NCBI RefSeq assembly: GCF_041146345.1
Contig: NW_027191414.1
Coordinates: 806,001-870,000 of the forward strand
Direction of reading: 5' to 3'
Origin: Neodothiora populina
Taxonomy: Eukaryota
DNA length: 64,000 nucleotides
Shown: positions 9,671 through 37,273 of the stretch, in pieces
Layout of the letters: each line of letters begins with the position of its first letter
Position numbering within the stretch: position 1 is the first letter of the stretch
Position numbers and translations under genes: made by a program
The notes under the pieces: generated by a model
Databases searched by the model: none
Seen by the model: only the letters and a program-made list of their open reading frames with translations
Told to the model about the DNA's origin: nothing

Positions 9671-12353
9671 TCAAGACCTGATAGCATTACCCAAGACGCC
9701 TCCCTGGAATCCTTGACCACCTCGGCCACCACGGAGACCGCCACGGCCGCCTCTGCCTCCTCTGGCACCTCCGCGGCCGCCTCTTTGGCCGCCTTGCCTC
9801 TCGAAGGCGTTGGCTGTGCCCTGTGTCCTCTGCTCCAGCGTCCTCTCGTTGCTCTCGATGAGGCCGGATGCCTTGTCTGAGAGGGTGAGAGCCAAGCTCT
9901 GCAGTCTGCTGAGCTCGACACCCTTTCTGAAGATGATGGCGCTGTTGACCTGGTCGAGAGCAGCGGCGAGCTCCTCGTGGCTGATCATCTTGCTGACAAT
10001 GGCGGCGACCTTGCGCTCGGAAAGGTCGAACATGGAAGCCAGCTTGCCAACGGAGAGTGTGTCGTAGAATGGTGCGTAGGTGAAAAGGTAGGTGCGGAGA
10101 CCCTCCTCTTGGATCTGCTCCTCCAACATGGTCTTGATTTTGGGTGCTTGCGGCAAGAGTTCCCAGATCTTGATCGAAGTGATGAAGTCGGCGGCCTTTC
10201 GCCACTCGCCCTGGGCCAGAGCCTTTGATGCCTGCATGACGTGGTCACGGGTGTTCTCAGGGGGACCGGTGAAGATCTGGCGCTCGTGGTACTCCAACAT
10301 ACGTCTGTATGACTTGCTGATCACCCTCTTTCTGACGTCAGGCGAGGAGCCGACCTGAGCAAGAAGAGGAATCTCGAGAAGCATAGAGCAGGTAAGGTAT
10401 ACACACTCGAGCAACTCGAGGTTGATGTGCATGTGGAATGGAAGTTGACGCTGGCGCTCGAGACGCTCCTGCTCGGGGGTGATTTGAGAGTAACGCTGCA
10501 TCTGCAGACCTTGAGCCAAGAGCTCCTTTTGTCTCTGACTACCGCAGATCTCTTGTAGGGAGTTCTGGGCCTCGTAGACAAGACCAGCGCGGAAGGCACA
10601 GAGACCGACCTGGGTCAGCGTGCGGTTGAACAGGATCTGGGTGTTGACGTCGAAGCTGCCAATGGTCTCCTGGAGATGGGACATGAGCATCATATCGCGG
10701 GCCTTGTAGTATTGGTCGTGAAGAGCGAGGTGGTAGACCTGGCAAAGCATGGCGCGGGCGCGAAGGATGCCCTCACTGTGGGTGAAGAGGTAGGTGCAGA
10801 GGGTCGAGACGAGAGCAGTGGCGTCGACAGTGGTGGTGCGAGGAGTGATGGTGGAGTTAAGAGTGCTTGGTAGCTCGTTCCACGTCTTCTCCTCGAGGAT
10901 GTCGATGACCTGAGAAGGCTTGAAGTAGATGTGCTCCAGTCTACGCATGACAATGCGACTGGCGGTCTCGGGGACGGCCTCAAGCTTGGCGTCAGCAGTG
11001 AGACGCTCGGCGTAGAGCTGAGCGCGGACGATGTTGGCATATAGAGAAGCTTCGTCGCTGAGTCTCTCGACGTATTCGGCAGTGTGGGGGTCAATGGCCT
11101 GGAGGACACGGGTGAGCTCGTCGTCGAGTCTCTCAACGAAAGAGATGACGCTCCCGGGAATCTTGAAGGTCTCCTTCTCGTCGATGGTGGGTTGCTTGTC
11201 GTCATCCTCCCACTCCTCGGCGTTTTCGATGACGATCAGGTTGGGGCTGGCCTCGAGGATGCTGAGAAGACGAGCAATCTCCTGTTGAGCGGCCTTCCAC
11301 TGCTCCTGGCTCATCTGGTTGCCAGATCCGGCGTTCAGGTCAAAGCGGGTGGAGATGACGGTAAGGAGGACGCGGATTCTCTGGTAGTCGGAGACGGCAA
11401 CCTCGAGAAGCTTCTCCATGGTGCGGATCTGCTCGAGGCGGTCGGTGTTCTTGCGACCACGGGACTCGACAATGGTGCGGAGGTGCTTCAGGATGCTCTC
11501 GGGGGTGAAAGTCATGGCCTTGCCGCCGGCGCCGACCATTGTGAAGCCGTCGTCTTCGTCTCCAGCAGGAGCGTCGAATGCGGCGGCAGAAGACTTCTTG
11601 GCCTTCTTGGGTGCTGCAGCGGTGGGCTCCTCGACAATCTCATCCTTCATGAAGTCATCGGCGTTGTCACGGAAAGCCTTGATGTCGGACTCGTACTCCT
11701 TGTTGTTCTTGCGGATCTTTTGGCGCATAGCATTCAGACCCTTTGCGGCGGGCGGGCTGAGCTTCTTGGGAGTGACCTTTTGCTTCTCCACCGCCTCGAG
11801 CATGAGAGACTCGAGCTCGGAGATGGTCTTGATGTACATCTTTGGGGGCTTGCCGTTGTTGTCGCGGACGAGAGTTGGTAGTAATCGATTCATCTTGTCA
11901 AAGTCTAGTCGCAGAATGTCAGTGGTGCTCAGCGTCATGAATCAGAGGTCAAAGGCTAGACGCAGCATTGCGCGCCCGCGCAGTCGGCCGAAACGTGGTA
12001 TACGCACTGTCAGAGATGACACCCCAGTCGCTGATCTTGATGGCATTGTCGATGAGTTTGATGATAGACTCGAGCTCGTCGAAACGCTTGTCCTTTGCAC
12101 TCTTGACGATGGTGACTTTGTCCTCCTCTTCGCTGTCCGAGTCGTCTGAAGCCTCCTTCAAGAAGCGGTTGGCTCCCGTCTTTCCTCCTTCTTCATCGCT
12201 GGAATCACTGTCCTCGTCGTCGTCGTCCTCGTCCTCGGACTCTTCCGAAGAAGACTCCTGCTCGGACTTTTCTGCCTCCTCCTCGCTGTAAAGCTCTTCC
12301 TCGTCGGAGGAACCCTCGCTGGAGCTGTCGCTGCCGTAGAAAAAGCGAGACAT
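9671..12353 (-). CDS. NIP1: Translation initiation factor eIF3 subunit c, ~859 aa, 2 exons (12353-12008, 11904-9671)
   Basis: MSRFF start, acidic N-terminus, [33 protein letters not shown] domain and RGG tail; intron 11905-12007 (GTGCGT...ACTGAC...TAG) keeps frame. Confidence 0.95.
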
Positions 12354-20463: not shown

Positions 20464-22404
20464 TCACCAGCCGTACTTCTCGACCGATACATTGACGTCT
20501 AGACCCTGCCACGCAAGACGTGCACACGCGTTTCTAGCAGTGCGGTTCATTGAGTCCGGTCCCGAGACGACAACGCCAACTTTCGAGGCAGATGTCTGAC
20601 AGTCTGTTGTCGTCAATAGTGCCTGCAGCAGAGCTTCAACGTCGGGTTGTCCTGCTTTGCGTGTAGGTGGAGGGATCACGACGGCGAGACCTTGGTGCTT
20701 CAGCTCGTCGAGTCTCTCCTGTCCGATCCAGTCGACATGTGTTGCGTCGTGAACGATCCAGATCAGCGTGACACGTCGAGGGCTGTTGCTTGACTTGGTA
20801 TGGTGGTTGAAGAGTAAGTCCCATAGTAATGGGTATGCTACGGCTATACCTGTTCCTCCTGCCACTACGGCGGCATGCTCGCTTGCTCTTAGCATTTCCA
20901 GAGCGTGCAGGGAGCCATACGGGCCATCTACGCGCACATCGGCTGATCGATGTGATTGTGCGTAACGGAGAAACTCGCGGGAGAAGCCGTCGTGAGCACG
21001 TATCACGAAGTTCAACCATGCGTGGGTCGATTGCTCACCGCTGCTTGTTTCTGGCGCAGCGGAGGCGATGGTAAAAGGGTGGGCTTGGATGATGTGTTTT
21101 CGTGAAAGTGCTGGGACTGTGAGGAATACGTGTTCGCTTGGTTGCCAGCCGTTCCTGATATCGAACCTTCGACGCCACCAAGATATCTGCTTGGTGATGG
21201 ACCAATCCGATGAGAGTAGCACAGTCTCGCCGTCTTCCATGATGCTGAGATCAGCTACCATAGTGCGAGTCTTGAGACCGAGGCGGCAAACGACTCGATC
21301 GATTGCGAAAATCCCCAGCGCTATCCCTACGTACAGGCGAGTTGCTGGATGGTGGAAGAACAAGAACCCGAGCGCAGCCACTTGAAGGAAAACGTGCAGA
21401 GCAAGGAACAGTTCGTAGAATCGTTGCCTGAGACTTCCCAGCGACGTGAGATATAGTGCCTCGTACGCGATAAAAGCCCCAATGCCCAGCCATACTAGGG
21501 GAATCGCCAGGAACCTCCAGAAGCTGACATGCTCCGAGAGGAGAGTGTACCATGTGGTTACCATGCCGGCTGCATGTACCAATGCGACGAAACACATCCA
21601 CTCTCCCAGTCTACGATGTATTATATTCAGTCGCTCATAGGAATGACCGGTCAGCCACTTTATCGGTTGGTTCTTTGCGGCGCATAGATATAGTAACGGG
21701 AGGTTTGCAACGAAGAGTAAGCCGGCCCGGTCTGCCAGGACGAATGCGAAGGAGATGACCAGAGGTACTCGGAACAGAAGGTAGAAGATGTTAAGCCCAA
21801 TGAAGAGCAGCACGGCCACGCTGGTCGCGTTAGAAGGTAGAGTCTTGTTGATGACCGGGATATTTGGAGGCTGGTACATCATCCATGATCTTAGCATGAG
21901 AGCAAGAGATCGAGATCTCTGCCGAGGAGCAGTATTGATGAGAGGAGAAGTTTCATCTTCATCCTTTCGCCTTTCTGCTTGCGTGGGCGAGGTCAAAGTA
22001 CTGCTACTGCTGCTGCTGCCACTCGAGGTCGGGGCTGATATTGCAACAGCATTCGTATCCCCGACATCCGATATCTTGCTTCCATTCTGTTCCGTTGCCA
22101 GATTGCGGGTGTGGGAGACTCTTCGGCCCCAGTGCACAGCGGTCAGACACAGTAGTATCAAACACAAAACTACGTTATATGTAACGATGAACCGGCGGGA
22201 GAACAAGACTCCCTGGACGACCTTCGCCCTCCGTTCAGACTCTGCAGCGTCCTGGGTTCCGAAGCCGGATGTGTCGACAGAGGCTATTGTCACGACGTCC
22301 ATCGCGACGTTTGCACTTGCTTGTCGAACAGAACGTATCGAAGCACTTGCAGACGATGGTATTGACATATATTTCAGTGATACATTGTCATCTTGTCTTA
22401 TCAT
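20464..22404 (-). CDS. Ferric reductase-like transmembrane oxidoreductase (FRE/NOX superfamily)
   Basis: Heme-ligand histidines (IIHRRLG...LVH; ALH...FFHH), FAD-binding HPFT, NADPH-binding DGPYG, VAGGTGI, VVSGP and terminal EKYGW; start codon uncertain (22404 or a later ATG). Confidence 0.88.
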   Translation of the reverse strand: MIRQDDNVSLKYMSIPSSASASIRSVRQASANVAMDVVTIASVDTSGFGTQDAAESERRAKVVQGVLFSRRFIVTYNVVLCLILLCLTAVHWGRRVSHTRNLATEQNGSKISDVGDTNAVAISAPTSSGSSSSSSTLTSPTQAERRKDEDETSPLINTAPRQRSRSLALMLRSWMMYQPPNIPVINKTLPSNATSVAVLLFIGLNIFYLLFRVPLVISFAFVLADRAGLLFVANLPLLYLCAAKNQPIKWLTGHSYERLNIIHRRLGEWMCFVALVHAAGMVTTWYTLLSEHVSFWRFLAIPLVWLGIGAFIAYEALYLTSLGSLRQRFYELFLALHVFLQVAALGFLFFHHPATRLYVGIALGIFAIDRVVCRLGLKTRTMVADLSIMEDGETVLLSSDWSITKQISWWRRRFDIRNGWQPSEHVFLTVPALSRKHIIQAHPFTIASAAPETSSGEQSTHAWLNFVIRAHDGFSREFLRYAQSHRSADVRVDGPYGSLHALEMLRASEHAAVVAGGTGIAVAYPLLWDLLFNHHTKSSNSPRRVTLIWIVHDATHVDWIGQERLDELKHQGLAVVIPPPTRKAGQPDVEALLQALLTTTDCQTSASKVGVVVSGPDSMNRTARNACARLAWQGLDVNVSVEKYGW

Positions 22405-23034
22405 CGATCTAGTGATCTGCGGGGACCCGGTTGGAAGGACGTGGGGGCGTTTAGTAAGTTGGTGACATACCACACTCGGTTTTGAGGTCGTACCCCCACG
22501 ACTCCCCTTATTTCAGGCAGCAGAGTAAACACAAGTACGATGCAGCTATATTTGATAAGAGATCCTGAACATCTGCGATTCGACAAAGGCAGGCAAGGCA
22601 TGCAAGAGATAAAGCATATCAGGCGGTTCTATCCTTGCAAAACATGTGATGGCTGTGTCGTCTACCAGACACGTTCTATCTGCGTATGCATCACTCACTG
22701 AAATCAGGAGCTTACGGTATCTAGTCGTCTCCGATATCCTCATTTGAGCCTACCAAGACAGGAGATACCATGAGCAGTGATATCTCAAGTGGGGCTATGT
22801 AAACAACCCAGAGTATATGTGTACTCTGGTAGTTTGATCGAGCTTAACAGAGCAACCCTGACCACTCTTATCATTAAATAATAATACACCGTCTGTACGA
22901 CATAGGAACAGAGTCCAAGGGCTTGTGTATTACAGGTTCTTCCTTCATAGGTATGCCGTGGCCGTTTGCTTGATTCCTGTTCGCCATGGGCTCATCAATT
23001 ACCCTTGGTCTGATCAGCTGTTCCTCTGATCTGA

Positions 23035-24418
23035 TCATTCCACTGGAGATTTCTGCAGCGACTCATACCACTGTAAAATGCTGGAGAGCAAGAATGCACA
23101 AGAGGCCCATACCGTGGTACAAGCAGCCTGAGATTGCGCCCATCGCTTAGGATTGAACCCTAAGCAAGCAGAAAGAAGAAAGCCAATACCTTGAGTACCT
23201 GTGAGCTATGGACGCGTTCCACTTTGATTCAACATAGGAGGTCATACTTCCCACCAGATCCCAGAACCCTTCGAAGCGACTTCGTCAGTCTGAGCTCAAG
23301 TGATGATCAACGTGACAAAAACATACCGATATGCCAGCCCAGAAGACGTGGAGCAGGAAGCCACCAACGCGTTTGATTTTCAATCATGTAAAGCCATCCA
23401 GCTAAGACGAACAGGACAGAGCCAAGAAGAAAAGGCAACCATATGAGCATATCGACCGCTCGCATGGACAGCGTATTGGCAATTCCCGGGAGAGAGGCGA
23501 ACCCACCGATCCAGAAAATGGTACAACCTACCAATTGACCTGAAGAAGCAACGAAGCCGACATCTACATATGCACTGATTCAGCGCCTAGTGCCATAACC
23601 ACGGCATGGCAAAACCTACCTCGCAGGTAGTGAGTCTTCATATCATGCTATGACGGGAACCACGACCACCCGATTCTGGTTGCATACGCTTGATCCCCCA
23701 TTTGAGAGGTCTTGGTACCACGTGTAGCCCGTAGGAGGCTTTTCGGAATCCTTTTATGGTGGTGCGAACATAAGTCAAGGTCGGATCTAATCTTCGACCG
23801 GACATGGCCGTTGTGATAGACTTGTTCGACAGCCCAGCCAAAACATGCAGTCCGGTTCGCGTTGATGGCTTCGAAGAAAAGAAGGATGCTGCCTACTTCA
23901 AAGACACAGATACCTACAAACGCAGTTACACCTCCACCTACCAGAACCCCGTTGGAAAAAGTCCATTCAGGACGAATGTTTGGCAGGAAAGTGAAGAGGC
24001 CGTTCAAGATCCAGATAGCGCTTCCCCAAGCATAGATATAAGCCGCTAGCCATGAAATATCCCATATAGGATAGGACGTCAGCATGAGCCAGATCTTTCC
24101 AAGGACTGGCCGCCAACGAGCTGTGGGCTCTGGTACGATAGTAGACTCTCCTGAGCGCTGCTCTGCGGATGCCGAGACGTATAGCTTATGGCGCCCTTTG
24201 CGGTTGTCACGTGAAGACCATCTGAAGTCGATGCCACTCCCAAGAAGACTCACGGGTCTAAATGTCGCTTGAGTCGGATTTAGAAAGTGCAGCGGTCTGG
24301 TGACGTTCTCAGGTACAAGAATAGGATGAGAATCAATAGGTTTAGGTGTGTATGGCAGCCCTCGGTTGCCAGACATATCCATGGCTGAGTCGGCAGCCTT
24401 GTCCGAGGCATGGTTCAT
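23035..24418 (-). pseudogene. Fungal integral membrane protein gene (4 exons: 24418-23620, 23563-23327, 23268-23248, 23189-23035) with one in-frame TAG at 23648-23650
   Basis: WSSRDNRKGRH, YPIWDISW, several TM segments and a QWYESL C-terminus; all three introns keep frame; the only lesion is TAG in WSWFPS*HDMKTHYLRDVGF. It is either a pseudogene or a recoded gene. Confidence 0.7.
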
Positions 24419-26838
24419 TACTAAAACGTCCGCGTAGAGACATATTGACTACCTAGTCAAATATCGAGGTTTCTCGCAACGGCCTCATGGTCAAACAAGC
24501 CTATTGGGTCGCTCCTTCTTATTGCTCTCCCAGCGACACAACATCCAAGACATTGGATTCACCACGTTATATACTTGTGTACGAACCTGTCGAACGTGGG
24601 CTCTGAACCATAAGCCGGCCAGTATTGGACAGGAACAATAGAGCCACTCAAATGATTGGCTATGACTGGAATAGCAGAACATCGCTACGTGAATTGTCGC
24701 TTCATCGATCGAGCAACCGTCCAATATTTCGAACCCGAGCCCGAATTGCAAACGGTCATCCACATTTCAGGCTGCACCTCATCTTCCCCGAGCCTCGCAA
24801 GATGAGCAACGAGGAAATCAAGATCAATACTCGACATCACCAACGGGCTCGACAGAACGAGCGTGGAACAAATGATAACCTTACCTCGGCTTCTACCAAT
24901 GCGCCAGAAACACAACGAGGTCATAGTCGAGCCGGAGATGAGACTCGAAATGACCGTGCGCTTGTAAGGTAGCAGTCTATATGCTCGTCCCGCGCCGCCG
25001 TTGGCTGAGACATGGCCGTCACCGAACAATCACAATAACGGCGACTCCACCATGGACTCATGTCATGATGCTAACCGGTCTTACGCCTCAAAGCTTGCCC
25101 TTCGATGTGCGTGAATGGTAGGGCCAGTCGGAACCCGGGACGCCCAAGCGCCAGCCGGCTTGATGGGCAATTTGTGCATTGCTACACAGTATTACCGCTC
25201 ACCGCTCTCCCCTGACCATCCTACACAGAGTCCGAGTCATGAATTAACTAATGCTGCACACTGCTCGCAATCCCACGGACCGTCGCATCACGAGGGACTT
25301 AGTCAAGAGGAAAAAAGCAAAAGACGAGAAGTAGATGCTTTTACCCAGGCCAGCCAAGCGAAGCAATCAAGCAACACCGTCCACCACACCCCCAGCCCGA
25401 TCAGCCTGGCATAATATGGGAGGAAAGTGATCGACAAGGCACATTATAGATCCAACACTGACTCTTTCTTGTCCCAGAAGGCTAGCTAGCGGACACACCG
25501 CCTCTTCCTATGAGCGAAACACACAATGAACAACGACCGCGATCCCCACTATTCTCCTCTATTAAACTCAAGTGTAACCAAGTGCCTAAGAGACAAACTA
25601 CCACACGGCGGGAACGAGGGATGGAATGCGAAAGAGAGTTTTGGCAACATGGGAGTTAGAAGCGCAAGATAAGCTGCAAGTGATCCTTATTTTGCTAATG
25701 CGTCCAAGCACGCTCGGGCATTTGCGGTCGAAAAGCACGTTTTCTTCAGTTGTAAACCCAACGGTCGGACAAAGGAACGAATGGGCAGGGACCCACAGTA
25801 AGGAAGCGCAGGCATAACACAACGGTTCTAATATTCTATGTTTCTAATCTGATTTGCGTCGTGTTGCACTCGCAAAGGTTGTGTAGAGTAGTCTGTCTAG
25901 ATTACTGCGTCCCGAAGCAACCACAAGGCAATGACACAATAATACTTGCTTGCTGCTACAGTAGAGTCCCTCGAAGGGTGCGTGCGAGCGATGCGCCTGC
26001 TCACTAAAAGAGCAAAGACCGTTAATCTCCCTTTCCTTGAGTGATCGCTATGGGGTACATATGAGCACGAGCATGTGTATCTCATAGCACAGACCCGTAG
26101 CGAACCGAATCCCTTGCTTCATGGCCCTAGTGTTAGATCGGCGGATTCAGAAGAACAAGGGCACAGGGGGGTTGCCTAAGCGTTCTACTAAAAGTGGAGT
26201 TTGGACTCTCCCAGGCGAAGTGTTTCTGAATGGGTTGTTTCAATATGGCAAAACGGATTTACTGGCAAAATTTCCATAATTTGTATGGGAATTTTTGTCT
26301 TCACTCTCGTAAAACGAATCAGTTGGTTGTGCTTTTGGAGACATGGTGGTTCACATTCTGAGTCGCGTGACATAGAAATATTGTGTAGGGATATTGTTGT
26401 CTTGTAACCAGTAAGGAAATCAATATAGTCATTTAGAGAAAAAGTGTGGAAAATGTTTTTTTTGGATCGGATAGATGTTAGTTGTTTTTGTTCTGTCTCT
26501 ATCGTGTGAATCTATGTATGTACATTTTTGGTAAAAAGTCGCTGTGAAGTTTTCATATCGTCTTCTCAAAGGGTATATTGCGATTTGAAACAAACAAAAA
26601 ACTCCCCCCACTGTCGAATGCTTGGTTGTTTCTGGGAGAGATGAATGTCCAAGGATTCAAGTAAAGCGGTCTGAACTGTGAAAGGAAGACGTGACCGGCA
26701 TTAATTCGTAAAAAAAAATCTCCCCCGCCCCCAACTTCCCTTGACTTCCTCTTCTTCGAGGAATCCTTTTGTGACTAGTGTCGTTGGTAAAATATGTATA
26801 GATGAAGCGAATTATTGCCAATATGGCGAGGCACCCTT

Positions 26839-28067
26839 TTAAGCGGGACAGACCAACGTGGGTCTGTGGCAGCCAAAGGGAGCCATCAGTTGCTCGTAGC
26901 AAGTTGAGAAAGCAGAGCTGTATGATGCAGGTCCGTTGTAACACGAAGCCTGAGCGGACAGGAAGCTCTGTGACATTGTGTGAGGGCTTGGAGGAGGAGT
27001 GTGAAGCCTCGCGTGCACTGCAGGAGGCAATTGAGTGAACGGAATGTCAACATCCTGTACATGGTCCTGTGCAGCATACACGGGGCTGTAAGGTGGAGTC
27101 ATAGTTCCCACCGAGTTGATCATGGTAGGCTGAGAGGAAGGAGATGCATACTGCGAGCTGGTACCCTCAGAAGTGGAAGTGAACCCGGGGCAGAACATGA
27201 TTGCACGCTTCAACTCGGGAAGCGTCATGCGCTGGGAGGGGTTGCAGTCAAAGACACGTCTGAGAATACAGTCCAGTTCATCGGACAAGGGTAGGATTGT
27301 CTTCAAGAAGTTCCTGTCCTTCATGTAGGCGCGGAAGGTAGAATCCTCCATGGAAGCCCGCTTCCAAGGGTTGCGGCCGAAAGTAAGATTGACAAGAATC
27401 ACACCCAGGGACCAGACGTCATTGGGAGCAGATGCATAACATGAGCCGGCCCTTGGGTTGACCTGTTGGCACTCCGGGGACATGTAGAAGGTAGATCCAC
27501 AACCGAAGTCTGGTGAAAGGTGATCCTGGGTGGCAAGTCCAAAGTCGGCCAACTTCAAGGTCAAACCATCGTCGGCAACGAGGATGTTTTCCGGCTTCAA
27601 GTCTCGGTGGTAGACACCAATCGAATGACAATAAGCTACTGCATCAAGCATTTGTAGGAAAGCATTCTTGATAAGTGACTCGCGACCCACGTAAAAAGCC
27701 TGATCAGTAATCCTGGAAAAAAGATCACCTCCGGGGCAGTACTCCAGAACTACAAATGTGCAGTCGGGAGTTTCAATGATCTCGTACATGGAAACCACGT
27801 TAGGGTGTTCGCTGACTTGATGGTGCAGTTGAATCTCGCGCTGCTGGAAAGCTCGTTGCCTGGGTTCAAGGCCAACTTTGTTCAGTGCCTTGACGGCGAA
27901 TTGGAGACGAGGGTCATGCACATGGACAGCGCGATAGACGACACCATATGCTCCAATGCCTAGGACTTCCACTAGTTGCACAAGTCCTTGGAGAACTTGA
28001 CCGATGCGAGCATCAGGTGGCGATGATGTGGCTGAACATAGGGGAGATCCAGGGGGGTAGGGTACAT
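26839..28067 (-). CDS. Ran1/Pat1 (Sks1/Vhs1-like) Ser/Thr kinase; apparent 1-nt frameshift just after the ATG
   Basis: LGIGAYGVV, AVK, YHRDLKPEN, DFGLA, GCGSTFYMSPEC, NDVWSLGVILVNLTFGRNPW; ATG 28067 is out of frame with the kinase ORF. Confidence 0.85.
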
Positions 28068-31000
28068 ATCGCAGACTAATCAAAGCTTTCAGATGTGACC
28101 GACCCAATGCTCCCTGAAAAGAAATAACAGAAAGCAATTGGAATTGTTCTCGTGTTACAGGATTCCTTTGAAGTGCAATGTATTACTCAAAAAACAATCG
28201 AGTAGTTGAGACCTTGCACAGGTTGTAGTGGCAACTTTGGAGTATTAAAAAGATAGATCGATTAAAGAAGTTTGGTAGTGAGCTTGCTGATCGAGATCCT
28301 ATGGGAGTGGGCGTAAAAGAAAGGATATAGTCTCTTGGATAAACGAGGTGGTTAGCAGGGGTGACCGGATAAGGATATGCAATGTAGATATGGTTCTAAT
28401 CAGAGACGTGTTGCATATAGTGCTGTGGCCCACAGGCTTTTGGGGCAAGACAACACATGGCAAAATCCAGTCATGTCCCTGGCGCCGCGCTGCCTCTGGG
28501 CCACTAGTGCCATCCGATGCTTGTCGCCACGCCTACGCTTGCACCTAGCGCACCGCGAATCGTTTCGTGGCGTAACGTGTCCCTATTTTCTCAGCCGTTT
28601 AAGTTGCAGGAGTGGGACGGTCAGAAGCAGGCATAAGCGCACCGTCGCCTCTGGCGTATCGGGTGCTCTGAAAGTGGTGTGGCGGCTTTTATCACATTCC
28701 CGCATCCATCTATTGGCTATGGATCGAGGCGATGGTCCAAGTGAGATCGACAAAGCCGCCGAAGTCACCCACTCGGCGTCAGCATCCCTTCGCATGCGAC
28801 GACGAACGGTATGGCGTCGTGCCGTGCAGCTGTGGAGTCAAGTAACGAAATGGCAGGAAGTTTCCATGTGGAAATGTGCTTCAGCGTATTAGTGACGGCC
28901 ATGCACCCTCTACAATGCAGGCGGTGTTTCGAATCTGCTGAGCCATGCCACGCCTCGTCTGTCTTCGAACGCTTGCATACGTATGACTTGCATAATAAAA
29001 ACATTGCAGGCTGCACAAAAGTGTACAAAGAGAAGGATTGCATTCGTATGTATGTTGTTGCATTCACGAAGGCATCCTTTGGTACATCACACTACCTCGA
29101 ATGGCTACTTTAGTGACTCCCGATGTTTGGATGCTCGAGTACGGCATACTGTATGTTCATATCAGGGTTGAAGGCGTCTGACCACTGTACTCGTGTCCCA
29201 GAAAGCTTTTTTCCAGAGTATCCGTTGTGCGTTGGCGGGTACGATGCCCTGCAAGAGCGTCGATTTCGGTGTTGCACCATGACCGGTTGCAGAGGCTGAG
29301 CAAATGCGATGGTACGATACGTGTGAACTTTACGCGTAGGCGCCCGTCTCGACATGCAAGTGGCCCGAAAAGTGATAGTGCAGACTTCGACCATGCCGAC
29401 CGTACCTCACGATGGGCGGGACTGACTATGACACATGGCCATGCAGATCTGCTGCAGTACAAGCACTGTAGGCCTGGGATGGCGATCTGGCTTCTGTGCA
29501 AGGCTTACACAAAGCAGTGGTGGCGCGCACTGACATTCGCCCAGCGGCTGGCTGTGTGCCATGGGAGCACGACCGGCTTCTCTCACGGATCTCTGAGTTT
29601 GCTGGAACCTTGCTTATTATGGGAGACTGGGAGATTGCTACCTACCGACTGAAAAATTGTGAGTAGTCAGGTGCCGCAAGATTCCAGTCTAGTCTTCCGC
29701 ACCGCCAATATGTGGAAATGCTGCGCACGTCGCATCACCATAGGGCGAGTAATTGGTCCTTCGCCACTATGCGAAAAGCTGCTCGCCACACACAGCGAGC
29801 AAATTATGACTCCGCTATCTTGGACAGGGATAGGTGTGTGTGTGACTTCAAGACAGTTGGTGAATCACGCGTCTGCATCGTTCGCGACGTACCTCTCCGC
29901 TCCCACCGCTGCCGTGCAAGGCGTGGAAGTCTAATAATTTACTGCTTTACTTTTTCTTCCTAGGTGCGTGATCGTCCACCCCACGAGTGCCGAATTAGAG
30001 TATTGCATCAGAGTTGCAGGGGAGCGGATAGGGGGCGCTTCCAGACCATGAAGGCTGACTCGATGGGTCAAGCATGTTGGTGGTAGCATGGCCTGCCGCC
30101 TTTTCTGCGAACGTTTTCTGCTGCCTTCGTTCACTCCCCACTATCACGATGGAGCTCTACCAAGAATGGTAAGCTCCTGACAATTTAAACACGCGTTACT
30201 GTGAACCTAATTGGCTCCGCGTCATCCGCTGCGAGTGACAGGTGGTTTCTTCTGTGAGAAAAAGGCTTCCAACCATGCGTAATGTATTATGCATGTAGTG
30301 GTACGGCAGCGGGAACGCTAAAGCACATTACCTGAAGGTACACAAGCCTTCTGGTCGATAAGCATGACTGCGAGATGCACTCCTCTGCAGATGGCTGAGT
30401 TGGCCTGTGGTCGTGGCTTGATTGTGATGATCTGAACGGCCCTTTTGACACTCGACTAGTCCTCTAAATCGTACTCATTTGTTGGTGATCCACTCGGGTC
30501 ATGGCGGTAGAATTTTAGAAGGGCCCCTCCAACGGGGATCCTCACGAACCTCCTCGGATCGCTTGAGAGCCGATGTGGTCAGACCAGAGAGTCCATCGAA
30601 GGAACGAAGAAAACTGTGGAATTGACGTTGAAAAAGTGTTCCGCACTAGTGAGGAAGCATGAATAGTGGGCGGTAGAGCCGTTCCTAATTATGCTCTTGG
30701 ACCGGTATTGCATCCTTTTTTAGTGATCAACATACGAACCCCCCTGTTTGTATCGTATTTCGTACCGAATTGGAGTATTGCTTGCACTCGCAACCACACC
30801 GTCCCCCCTGCTTCGCTTGTTAGTATATCAAAGATCGTACACAGTGACACGGCCCCAGTATGCATCTGCTAGGAAGCTGGCGGCCATTGCACCTTGGACC
30901 CTCAGCTGGACATGACCTAGCACGCACGCTTGCATAGGTGCATGCAGATTATCATGAGAAGGATCGCTCCGTGGGAACGGCTTTCTTGCCTGGCAGCCAA

Positions 31001-36418: not shown

Positions 36419-37273
36419 CTACGACTTGTTCCTGCTTGAACGTCTGGGCTCACCACTCTCGGTGGCAGCAGGCTTCGGCTCCTTCTTGGGCTTCGAGGCT
36501 GTCGATGATGAGCCATTGGCCTTGCTTGGACGACCTCGTTTCTTCTTTTCGCCTCCCTCCTCGGCTTCTCCTTCGTCCTTCTCATCCGTCTTTTGTTTTT
36601 TGAAAGAGGGCTCTTCCTCGGCGTCGGCGCCCTCGGCTTCGCGCTTGTCTCCCGTCTTGGCTTCGTCCTCGTTCTCGTCCTCATCCTCGTCCTCGTCTTT
36701 GTCCTCTGCCTTGTCCTCTTCCTTTTCGTCACCATTCTTTTCCTCCTTGGAGTCGCCGTTCTTGGTTGCTGCCTTGTCATCTTTCTCGTCGACCTTCTTG
36801 TCTTCCTTCTTGTCCTCTTTATCGCCCTTGTCGGCTTTCTCACCATCAACCTTCTTCTCCTCTGCTGCAGCTTCCTTGTGCTTGTCGCCGTCGCCCTCCT
36901 TGTCGATCTAGATCGTAGTGGTCAGCATGCGATTGTCCTCTCGAATGTGCTGCTTGCCATGGAGGAAATGGCGAGGTAGGAAACAACAAGACTCACCTCG
37001 TGCATACGCTTGACAACATCGTTTCCGGATCGTGAGATCTTAACAGCAGGGTCCTCTGGATCCGCGTTCTTCTTGACCGTGTTTCCCTTCTTGGTCTCGA
37101 TTTCGAGGTCGCCCTCCTTGGCTATCTCGGCGACTTTACCGCCTGGACGGCTGCCAGACCATTGCCAGGAGACTATCACGATATCAGAATCTATATCTAG
37201 ACTATCTGGCACAACATGCGATGATTGGAGTCAACTAACCGTCGTCGCCCTTTTGAATGTCCTTGTCAGCCAT
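36419..37273 (-). CDS. Hva1-TUDOR/DUF2945-like protein with acidic tail and AT-hook-like motif, 232 aa, 3 exons (37273-37240, 37172-36997, 36907-36419)
   Basis: Spliced product MADKDIQKGDDVSWQWSGSRPGGKVAEIAKEGDLEIETKKGNTVKKNADPEDPAVKISRSGNDVVKRMHEI...; D/E/K-rich region; KKRGRPSK; canonical introns. Confidence 0.8.

Follow-up and report, generated by a model that had tools for sequence, protein, structure and literature searches.

We report here a candidate for a restoratively recoded stop codon in a class of fungi with no known prior case. The window, by which we mean the whole stretch of 64,000 nucleotides of DNA that was analysed, carries on its minus strand a gene (23035..24418) of 403 codons, counting one internal TAG, for a fungal integral membrane protein that is predicted to have six helices and falls into no Pfam family. 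The TAG is codon 257 (23648..23650), and the proteins of relatives suggest that this Dothideales fungus has long retained it in a gene that still functions. The best single explanation is restorative A-to-I editing of UAG to UGG, a reading that we put forward tentatively and at something short of an even chance.

Results

Gene structure and the in-frame stop

The host is Neodothiora populina or a very close relative, as judged from an eIF3c ORF of 756 codons (9671-11941, minus strand), whose product is 99% identical to a protein of that species, the next matches being at 86-89%. [quoted passage not shown] In a run from another study (X3, organism B, 970 million letters) a contig of 297 nt is identical to 23192-23488, with introns 2 and 3 unspliced, and the species of the window seems to have been present in that sample.

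The membrane-protein ORF starts with an ATG at 24418 and ends with a TGA at 23037-23035, and all of its parts lie on the minus strand. Exon 1 (799 nt, 23620..24418) encodes the N-terminal domain, TM1-TM2, a loop and the WSWFPS motif, followed by the TAG and 9 further codons. Intron 1 (56 nt, phase 1, GTAGGT..TGTAG, 23564..23619) begins 28 nt past the TAG and is followed by exon 2 (237 nt, 23327..23563), which encodes TM3-TM4. Intron 2 (58 nt, GTATGT..GAAG, 23269..23326) contains a CTGAC branch-like motif and leads to exon 3, a micro-exon of 21 nt (23248..23268) that encodes GFWDLVG(S) and fits the HIGFWNLIG stretch of the membrane-protein family. After intron 3 (58 nt, GTATGA..TCAAG, 23190..23247), exon 4 (23035..23189) supplies the end of TM5, TM6 and the conserved C-terminus QWYESLQKSPVE before the TGA. 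An alternative acceptor for intron 3, 9 nt upstream, would keep the frame but agrees less closely with the alignment of the family. That alignment starts only at Met15 (ATG 24376, MSGNR...), which may be the true start codon. Exon 3 sits between two 58-nt introns in a region where the wider family is intron-less (HIGFWNLIGGIGF). The neighbouring genes, for a ferric-reductase-type oxidoreductase (20464-22512, minus strand) and a protein kinase (26839-28182, minus strand), have no obvious functional link to the membrane protein.

An earlier note on this DNA had described a minus-strand gene of 403 codons with three frame-preserving introns and a single TAG in an otherwise intact frame, and on both points the sequence agrees with it. 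The TAG, in the context WSWFPS-TAG-HDMKTHYLR, is the sole defect of the frame; an ORF of 256 codons precedes it, and 146 codons and three introns come after it. The A that would be edited lies at 23649, where the plus strand has T, and its neighbours are as the note gave them, with A at -2, U at -1, G at +1 and A at +3 (A-U-[A]-G-C-A). Removal of the stop by splicing was considered and rejected: the only plausible upstream donor, GTATGC at 23687, joined to the acceptor of intron 1 would define an intron of 124 nt, shift the frame and delete the conserved W.W.PS motif.

The TAG is present in the DNA itself. Logan contigs of two runs, X1 (depth 36.5) and X2 (depth 12.3), contain no differing letter over 22700-24700, and since they were built apart from the assembly of the window and carry the same letters, an assembler slip is ruled out. 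The check at 23649 that the earlier note had proposed thus returns TAG in contigs built from reads, and we give next to no credence to a sequencing or assembly error behind which the real codon is TGG. X1 and X2 are two runs of one sample, possibly the source of the window, and the result applies to that isolate; a strain-specific allele is still compatible with it.

In run X2 a contig of 57 nt (depth 4.8) connects 24342 directly with 24435. If the cut is shifted by 3, the skipped 92 nt are 24346-24437. Read on the plus strand, they begin with GT and end with AG, with a TACTAAA-like branch motif lying 11-17 nt ahead of the AG, and they overlap the ATG of the membrane-protein gene. The unjoined form has a depth of 8.3 in X2, the joint was not found in X1 (depth 36.5), and one X2 contig runs unbroken through all three minus-strand introns. 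If X2 contains RNA, the joint may reflect a spliced antisense transcript over the start of the gene, spliced sense mRNA being absent; a DNA variant is equally likely. An antisense transcript would suit a gene that is silent in that sample.

When the window was scanned for single stops flanked by long ORFs in the same frame, 32 places were found. The only TAG case among them that is not antisense to a known gene, at 36977, was set aside as it had no Pfam support on either side of the stop. A small ORF at 36925-37230 (minus strand) carries a Hva1_TUDOR domain (E 9.8e-15).

The protein family and its predicted fold

A search with exon 1 gave 84 fungal protein matches (best E 3.8e-65), the named ones being called 'integral membrane protein' or 'hypothetical'. 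The protein of the interrupted gene was absent from these matches, among which the window's own proteins would be listed. Homology to the family extends over the full length and includes the motifs NRKGRH, CFGWA, HHH, W.W.PS, LGWHIG and YESL. The Pfam search assigned no family, its only match being to YrhK (E 0.083) and under the cut-off for that family; the similarity to the small bacterial two-helix YrhK-like proteins was likewise weak in a second search (score 0.87), and we treat it as a lead only. An Atlas search matched only a cluster of Ascomycota 'hypothetical protein' entries, and a scan of prokaryote genome contigs for the family found nothing.

An AlphaFold model of the homologue P0012, built from 36 aligned sequences (mean pLDDT 80.7, pTM 0.84), places in order a beta-rich N-terminal part, two TM helices, a beta hairpin, a disordered loop (224-253, pLDDT under 50) and four TM helices. 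The predicted fold is that of three two-helix hairpins forming a six-helix bundle, and in it the stop column lies just past the disordered loop and before the third helix, between hairpins 1 and 2. Foldseek found no match to this model in the PDB at E <= 0.001. By VIA-align the best natural matches were TMEM45A (Z 10.3), SatP (Z 10.0) and UreI (Z 9.0); according to the tool's own note, Z values of this order are common for helical bundles. The likeness to the succinate-acetate permease SatP (5ys3, rmsd 3.9 over 171 aligned residues) and to the urea channel UreI (3ux4, rmsd 4.1 over 168) lies in the six-helix bundle of the model, whereas sequence identity is ~10% and the fungal family has an additional beta-rich N-terminal domain. 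We take this as a lead towards a channel-like six-helix bundle, and the likeness as one of architecture and not of membership.

The residue at the stop column in relatives

The residue that directly follows the W.W.P[ST] motif was tabulated for the 75 of 86 proteins (P0004-P0089) that contain the motif. Trp was found in 49, the chain ended in five, and the others had M (5), S (4), R (3), L (3), K (2), T (2), A (1) or I (1). Among 27 metagenome loci of the family, 20 held the motif and had W (6), R (5), L (2) or one each of Y, H, N, P, S, M and I at the column. A stop occurred in 0 of these 20, and none of them therefore belongs to the stop-bearing clade. In the sister clade of that clade, which contains Aureobasidium proteins, Trp was present in 9 of 9. 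Trp is the commonest residue at the column, yet the position is not strictly constrained, so that the description of the stop as lying at a Trp-like position holds for the sister clade and for most of the 75 proteins but has to be qualified by the many other residues that are tolerated and by the minority share of Trp among the metagenome loci.

Two metagenome loci that are similar to each other, L004 and L006, have Tyr (TAC) and His (CAC) at the column, and their downstream part resembles that of the sister clade. The TAC of this pair is, like TGG, one step from TAG.

Apparent conservation of the stop in the closest relatives

The five most similar database proteins end exactly at the column. 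They finish ...WSWCPS or ...WSWLPS, that is, at the residue that precedes the TAG in the window gene, and they represent three lineages (P0004, P0005/P0088 and P0006/P0089, the paired entries being cluster mates) that are 49-54% identical to the window gene and 49-59% identical among themselves. No other of the 75 motif-bearing proteins ends there, the remaining 70 continuing past the column. All five are ORF-style calls, as their N-terminal extensions show; since their source contigs are 2-13 kb in length, the chain ends are not caused by contig ends.

A tree was calculated by a quick method from the part upstream of the column, with 73 rows comprising the window gene, the five ending chains and 67 further proteins from P0007-P0087 in which the motif is present and preceded by no fewer than 180 residues. 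In this tree the window gene and the five ending chains form one group (SH-aLRT 88), which is sister (96) to the clade with Trp in every member. Branches within the stop group are long (0.35-0.88, about 0.87 for the window gene) compared with about 0.1-0.3 in the Trp-bearing sister clade. On these branch lengths the protein appears to have evolved faster since the stop arose, which could also be compatible with relaxed constraint.

We infer from the protein ends that the three related lineages share the same stop, although the codon could be TGA or TAA in them, and a phase-2 intron of the form TC/GTAAGT or TC/GTGAGT in the relatives would equally end an ORF call at ...PS. The earlier note had suggested looking for relatives that keep the stop, and the predicted proteins of the nearest relatives do all end at the column. 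The ancestral codon was most probably TGG, which is one G-to-A transition from TAG. The simplest reading of the tree is that a single TGG-to-TAG change took place in the ancestor of the clade and has been kept ever since, while about 1.5 changes per site accumulated.

Constraint downstream of the stop

The earlier note had asked whether the exons after the TAG evolve under purifying selection, and by several measures they are as conserved as those before it. In a comparison with 36 full-length relatives, the window gene retains, past the TAG, 13 of 13 columns that are invariant in the family and 18 of 24 whose conservation is 90% or higher; ahead of the TAG the counts are 8 of 8 and 39 of 45. 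Averaged over 39 full-length relatives, identity is 49% downstream as against 42% for the upstream core, a ratio of 1.17 that lies within the family's own range of 1.07-1.40. The downstream exons contain neither a frameshift nor a further stop, and the three introns preserve their GT..AG ends and the reading frame.

A word-index search with exon 2 among proteins of 42-137 aa found nothing. An exhaustive profile-free search with the same exon found two sets of short proteins (P0210/P0358 and P0211/P0359/P0360/P0361) that are intact, are 54-59% identical to the window gene and break where its introns 1 and 2 lie; the break at the position of intron 2 is seen in P0358, P0360, P0359 and P0214. In most of the family the exon-2 region is a single intron-less stretch. 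These short proteins look like the intact exon 2 of further members of the sub-lineage; no link between them and the contigs of P0004-P0006 was found.

The pattern of retained columns indicates that the 146 codons after the TAG are under purifying selection. With conservation on both sides of the stop, the cell must under some condition still produce the whole protein or, at a minimum, the C-terminal part of it, and either recoding of the TAG or separate expression of the part downstream of it is implied.

RNA structure around the stop

The proposal in the earlier note that the A of the stop sits at the apex of a hairpin was not confirmed by folding. Folds of 39 and 76 nt around the TAG did not exceed dinucleotide shuffles in stability (z +0.45 and +0.56), and the register proposed there, with a 3-nt loop, scored -1.4 kcal/mol against -3.0 kcal/mol for a competing register in which the target A is base-paired. 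The probability that the target A is unpaired was 0.29 in the spliced context and 1.0 (as a bulge) in the pre-mRNA context. In fungal editing a hairpin-loop location of the edited A is a preference and not a requirement.

Discussion

Proposed restoration of the stop by A-to-I editing

The stop separates the first two-helix hairpin from the remaining two in what is predicted to be a six-helix membrane protein. Read literally, the mRNA would give only the 256-residue fragment, with three introns left after the stop. We propose that A-to-I editing in a particular stage would convert UAG to UIG, which would be read as UGG (Trp) to yield the full-length protein, so that the gene would be off when unedited and on when edited, as for the genes with corrected premature stops in Fusarium and Neurospora. 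The Trp of an edited codon would match the residue of the stop-less relatives, both in the sister clade and in most of the family. In fungi, A-to-I editing prefers U at -1 and A or G at +1 and +3 (PMC11156358), and the context of the TAG agrees with this; since every UAG necessarily has U at -1 and G at +1, these two bases carry no weight, and only the A at +3 is informative.

The gene shares much with PUK1 and AMD1, which likewise have a single in-frame TAG in an intact gene, at a Trp column and one G-to-A change from TGG (PMC10776026, PMC5496914, PMC4817773). Their stop is kept across diverged species, as it apparently is here, and the sequence downstream of it is constrained (PMC10776026); AMD1 is moreover also a membrane protein (PMC4817773, PMC5496914). 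In F. graminearum the corrected premature stops are TAG and for the most part descend from TGG; they show conservation from one species to another and have recurred at identical positions, and their correction restores function in one stage (PMC10776026). PUK1 and AMD1 differ from the window gene in that they are Sordariomycete genes backed by RNA-seq and allele swaps, whereas the window gene belongs to the Dothideales, is known from DNA and has no supporting hairpin. The family described here is not known to be among those named in this literature (PMC10776026). A further conserved premature stop that is corrected by editing is that of CHE1 of F. graminearum, another gene in another organism, which is edited in vegetative hyphae under oxidative stress (PMC11169179); correction by editing thus need not be tied to the sexual stage (PMC11169179).

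Several considerations speak against editing. The folds around the TAG are no better than shuffles, and in the spliced context the target A is mostly paired. The stop clade has long branches, which could point to relaxed constraint. The tolerance of the column suggests that restoring Trp would not be required and that the products of readthrough would also work. Moreover, the host is a Dothideales fungus and hence, a case for which the earlier note had allowed, outside the lineages with demonstrated editing: A-to-I mRNA editing is documented only in Sordariomycetes and Pyronema, and searches for it in Aspergillus nidulans and Botrytis cinerea were negative (PMC11156358). In PMC10041177 the Dothideomycetes are named only in the context of residue evolution. 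The editing machinery of Fusarium consists of Tad2-Tad3 and of Ame1, which binds Tad3 (PMC11087585), and the Ame1-Tad3 interaction that editing needs there is reported to have arisen within the Sordariomycetes (PMC11087585). Since this interaction is regarded as a Sordariomycete innovation, editing in the Dothideales, if real, was probably of independent origin. That the Dothideales have a stage-specific A-to-I editing of their own, by which a TAG kept across at least four deeply diverged lineages would be restored, is in our judgement possible, and we hold it with somewhat more reserve than the explanation of this one TAG.

Alternative explanations

The comparative data, with a conserved stop, constraint downstream of it and a column that tolerates W, R, Y, H, M, L and S among other residues, would be accounted for equally well by leaky or programmed readthrough, in which a near-cognate tRNA at the UAG would allow a little full-length protein to be made, always or conditionally, with no change to the RNA. 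We consider this rather unlikely. The stop is directly followed by C (UAG C), the leakiest +4 base in eukaryotes. Among the motifs that favour readthrough are UGA CUA and, for UAG, the sequence CARYYA; the UAG CAU GAU of the window gene, however, agrees with UAG CARYYA only at +4 C and +5 A and does not reproduce the known leaky context. Readthrough at a few percent would also be a wasteful route to a six-helix protein, and an mRNA with three introns past its stop would be a likely target of decay. Functional readthrough does exist in fungi, and the peroxisomal isoforms described in PMC4207609 are longer functional proteins that arise when a stop is translated as a sense codon, just as would be needed here. 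The cases set out in that source, however, use UGA CUA at natural stops and add short targeting tails, whereas the UAG considered here interrupts a membrane protein midway, and 146 codons and three introns still follow it. A split or truncated product is less probable again. The 256-residue N-terminal fragment, comprising the soluble domain and one hairpin, would then be functional and the four C-terminal helices would be made separately, from Met260, three codons past the stop, or from an internal transcript, and the pieces might assemble. The position of the stop at a natural domain boundary, after the disordered loop and between hairpins 1 and 2 in the predicted fold of P0012, would speak for such an arrangement, as would the in-frame ATG three codons past the TAG, which has G at -3, the conservation of both halves and perhaps the weak resemblance to the bacterial two-helix YrhK-like proteins. 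Re-initiation is, however, inefficient in eukaryotes after a long ORF such as one of 256 codons. A Met at that position is also found in the uninterrupted relative P0074 and is thus not special, and the 70 motif-bearing family proteins that run past the column do so with no break, 39 of them as full-length single chains.

We regard it as improbable that the TAG is a nonsense allele in a dying or dead gene, whether a recent TGG-to-TAG change in this strain or a pseudogene across the whole clade. A single G-to-A change from the Trp codon of the sister clade would suffice, the two DNA runs from one sample say nothing on fixation in the species, the stop clade has long branches, and the absence of the gene's protein among the exon-1 matches points, weakly, in the same direction. 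Against this, three other lineages that are about 50% diverged end at the same column and keep ORFs of 250 aa, in which all 33 columns that are invariant across 26 aligned proteins are retained. The downstream exons of the window gene are likewise free of frameshifts and further stops, with intact splice sites and every one of the 13 invariant residues in place, and, given a shared stop, about 1.5 changes per site of neutral decay would have been enough to destroy them. Since the stop is apparently shared and the part downstream of it is constrained, a recent private nonsense allele or a decaying pseudogene is unlikely. What remains of our confidence after editing, readthrough, a split product, a pseudogene and error have been considered is left to something we have not thought of.

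Significance

The editing reading is plausible, and the apparent persistence of the stop makes it more interesting than a lone nonsense codon would be. Genes interrupted in this way are dropped or cut short by annotation pipelines, and the protein of the window gene is itself absent among the exon-1 matches. Should readthrough or a split protein prove to be the explanation instead, the gene would encode an unusual membrane protein interrupted between its structural repeats. For editing, a stop kept at one site in diverged Dothideales lineages together with constraint downstream of it offers a concrete test in the Dothideomycetes, a large class with many plant pathogens and black yeasts. If restorative editing is indeed responsible, this would be the third fungal lineage in which it occurs, after the Sordariomycetes and the Pezizomycetes.
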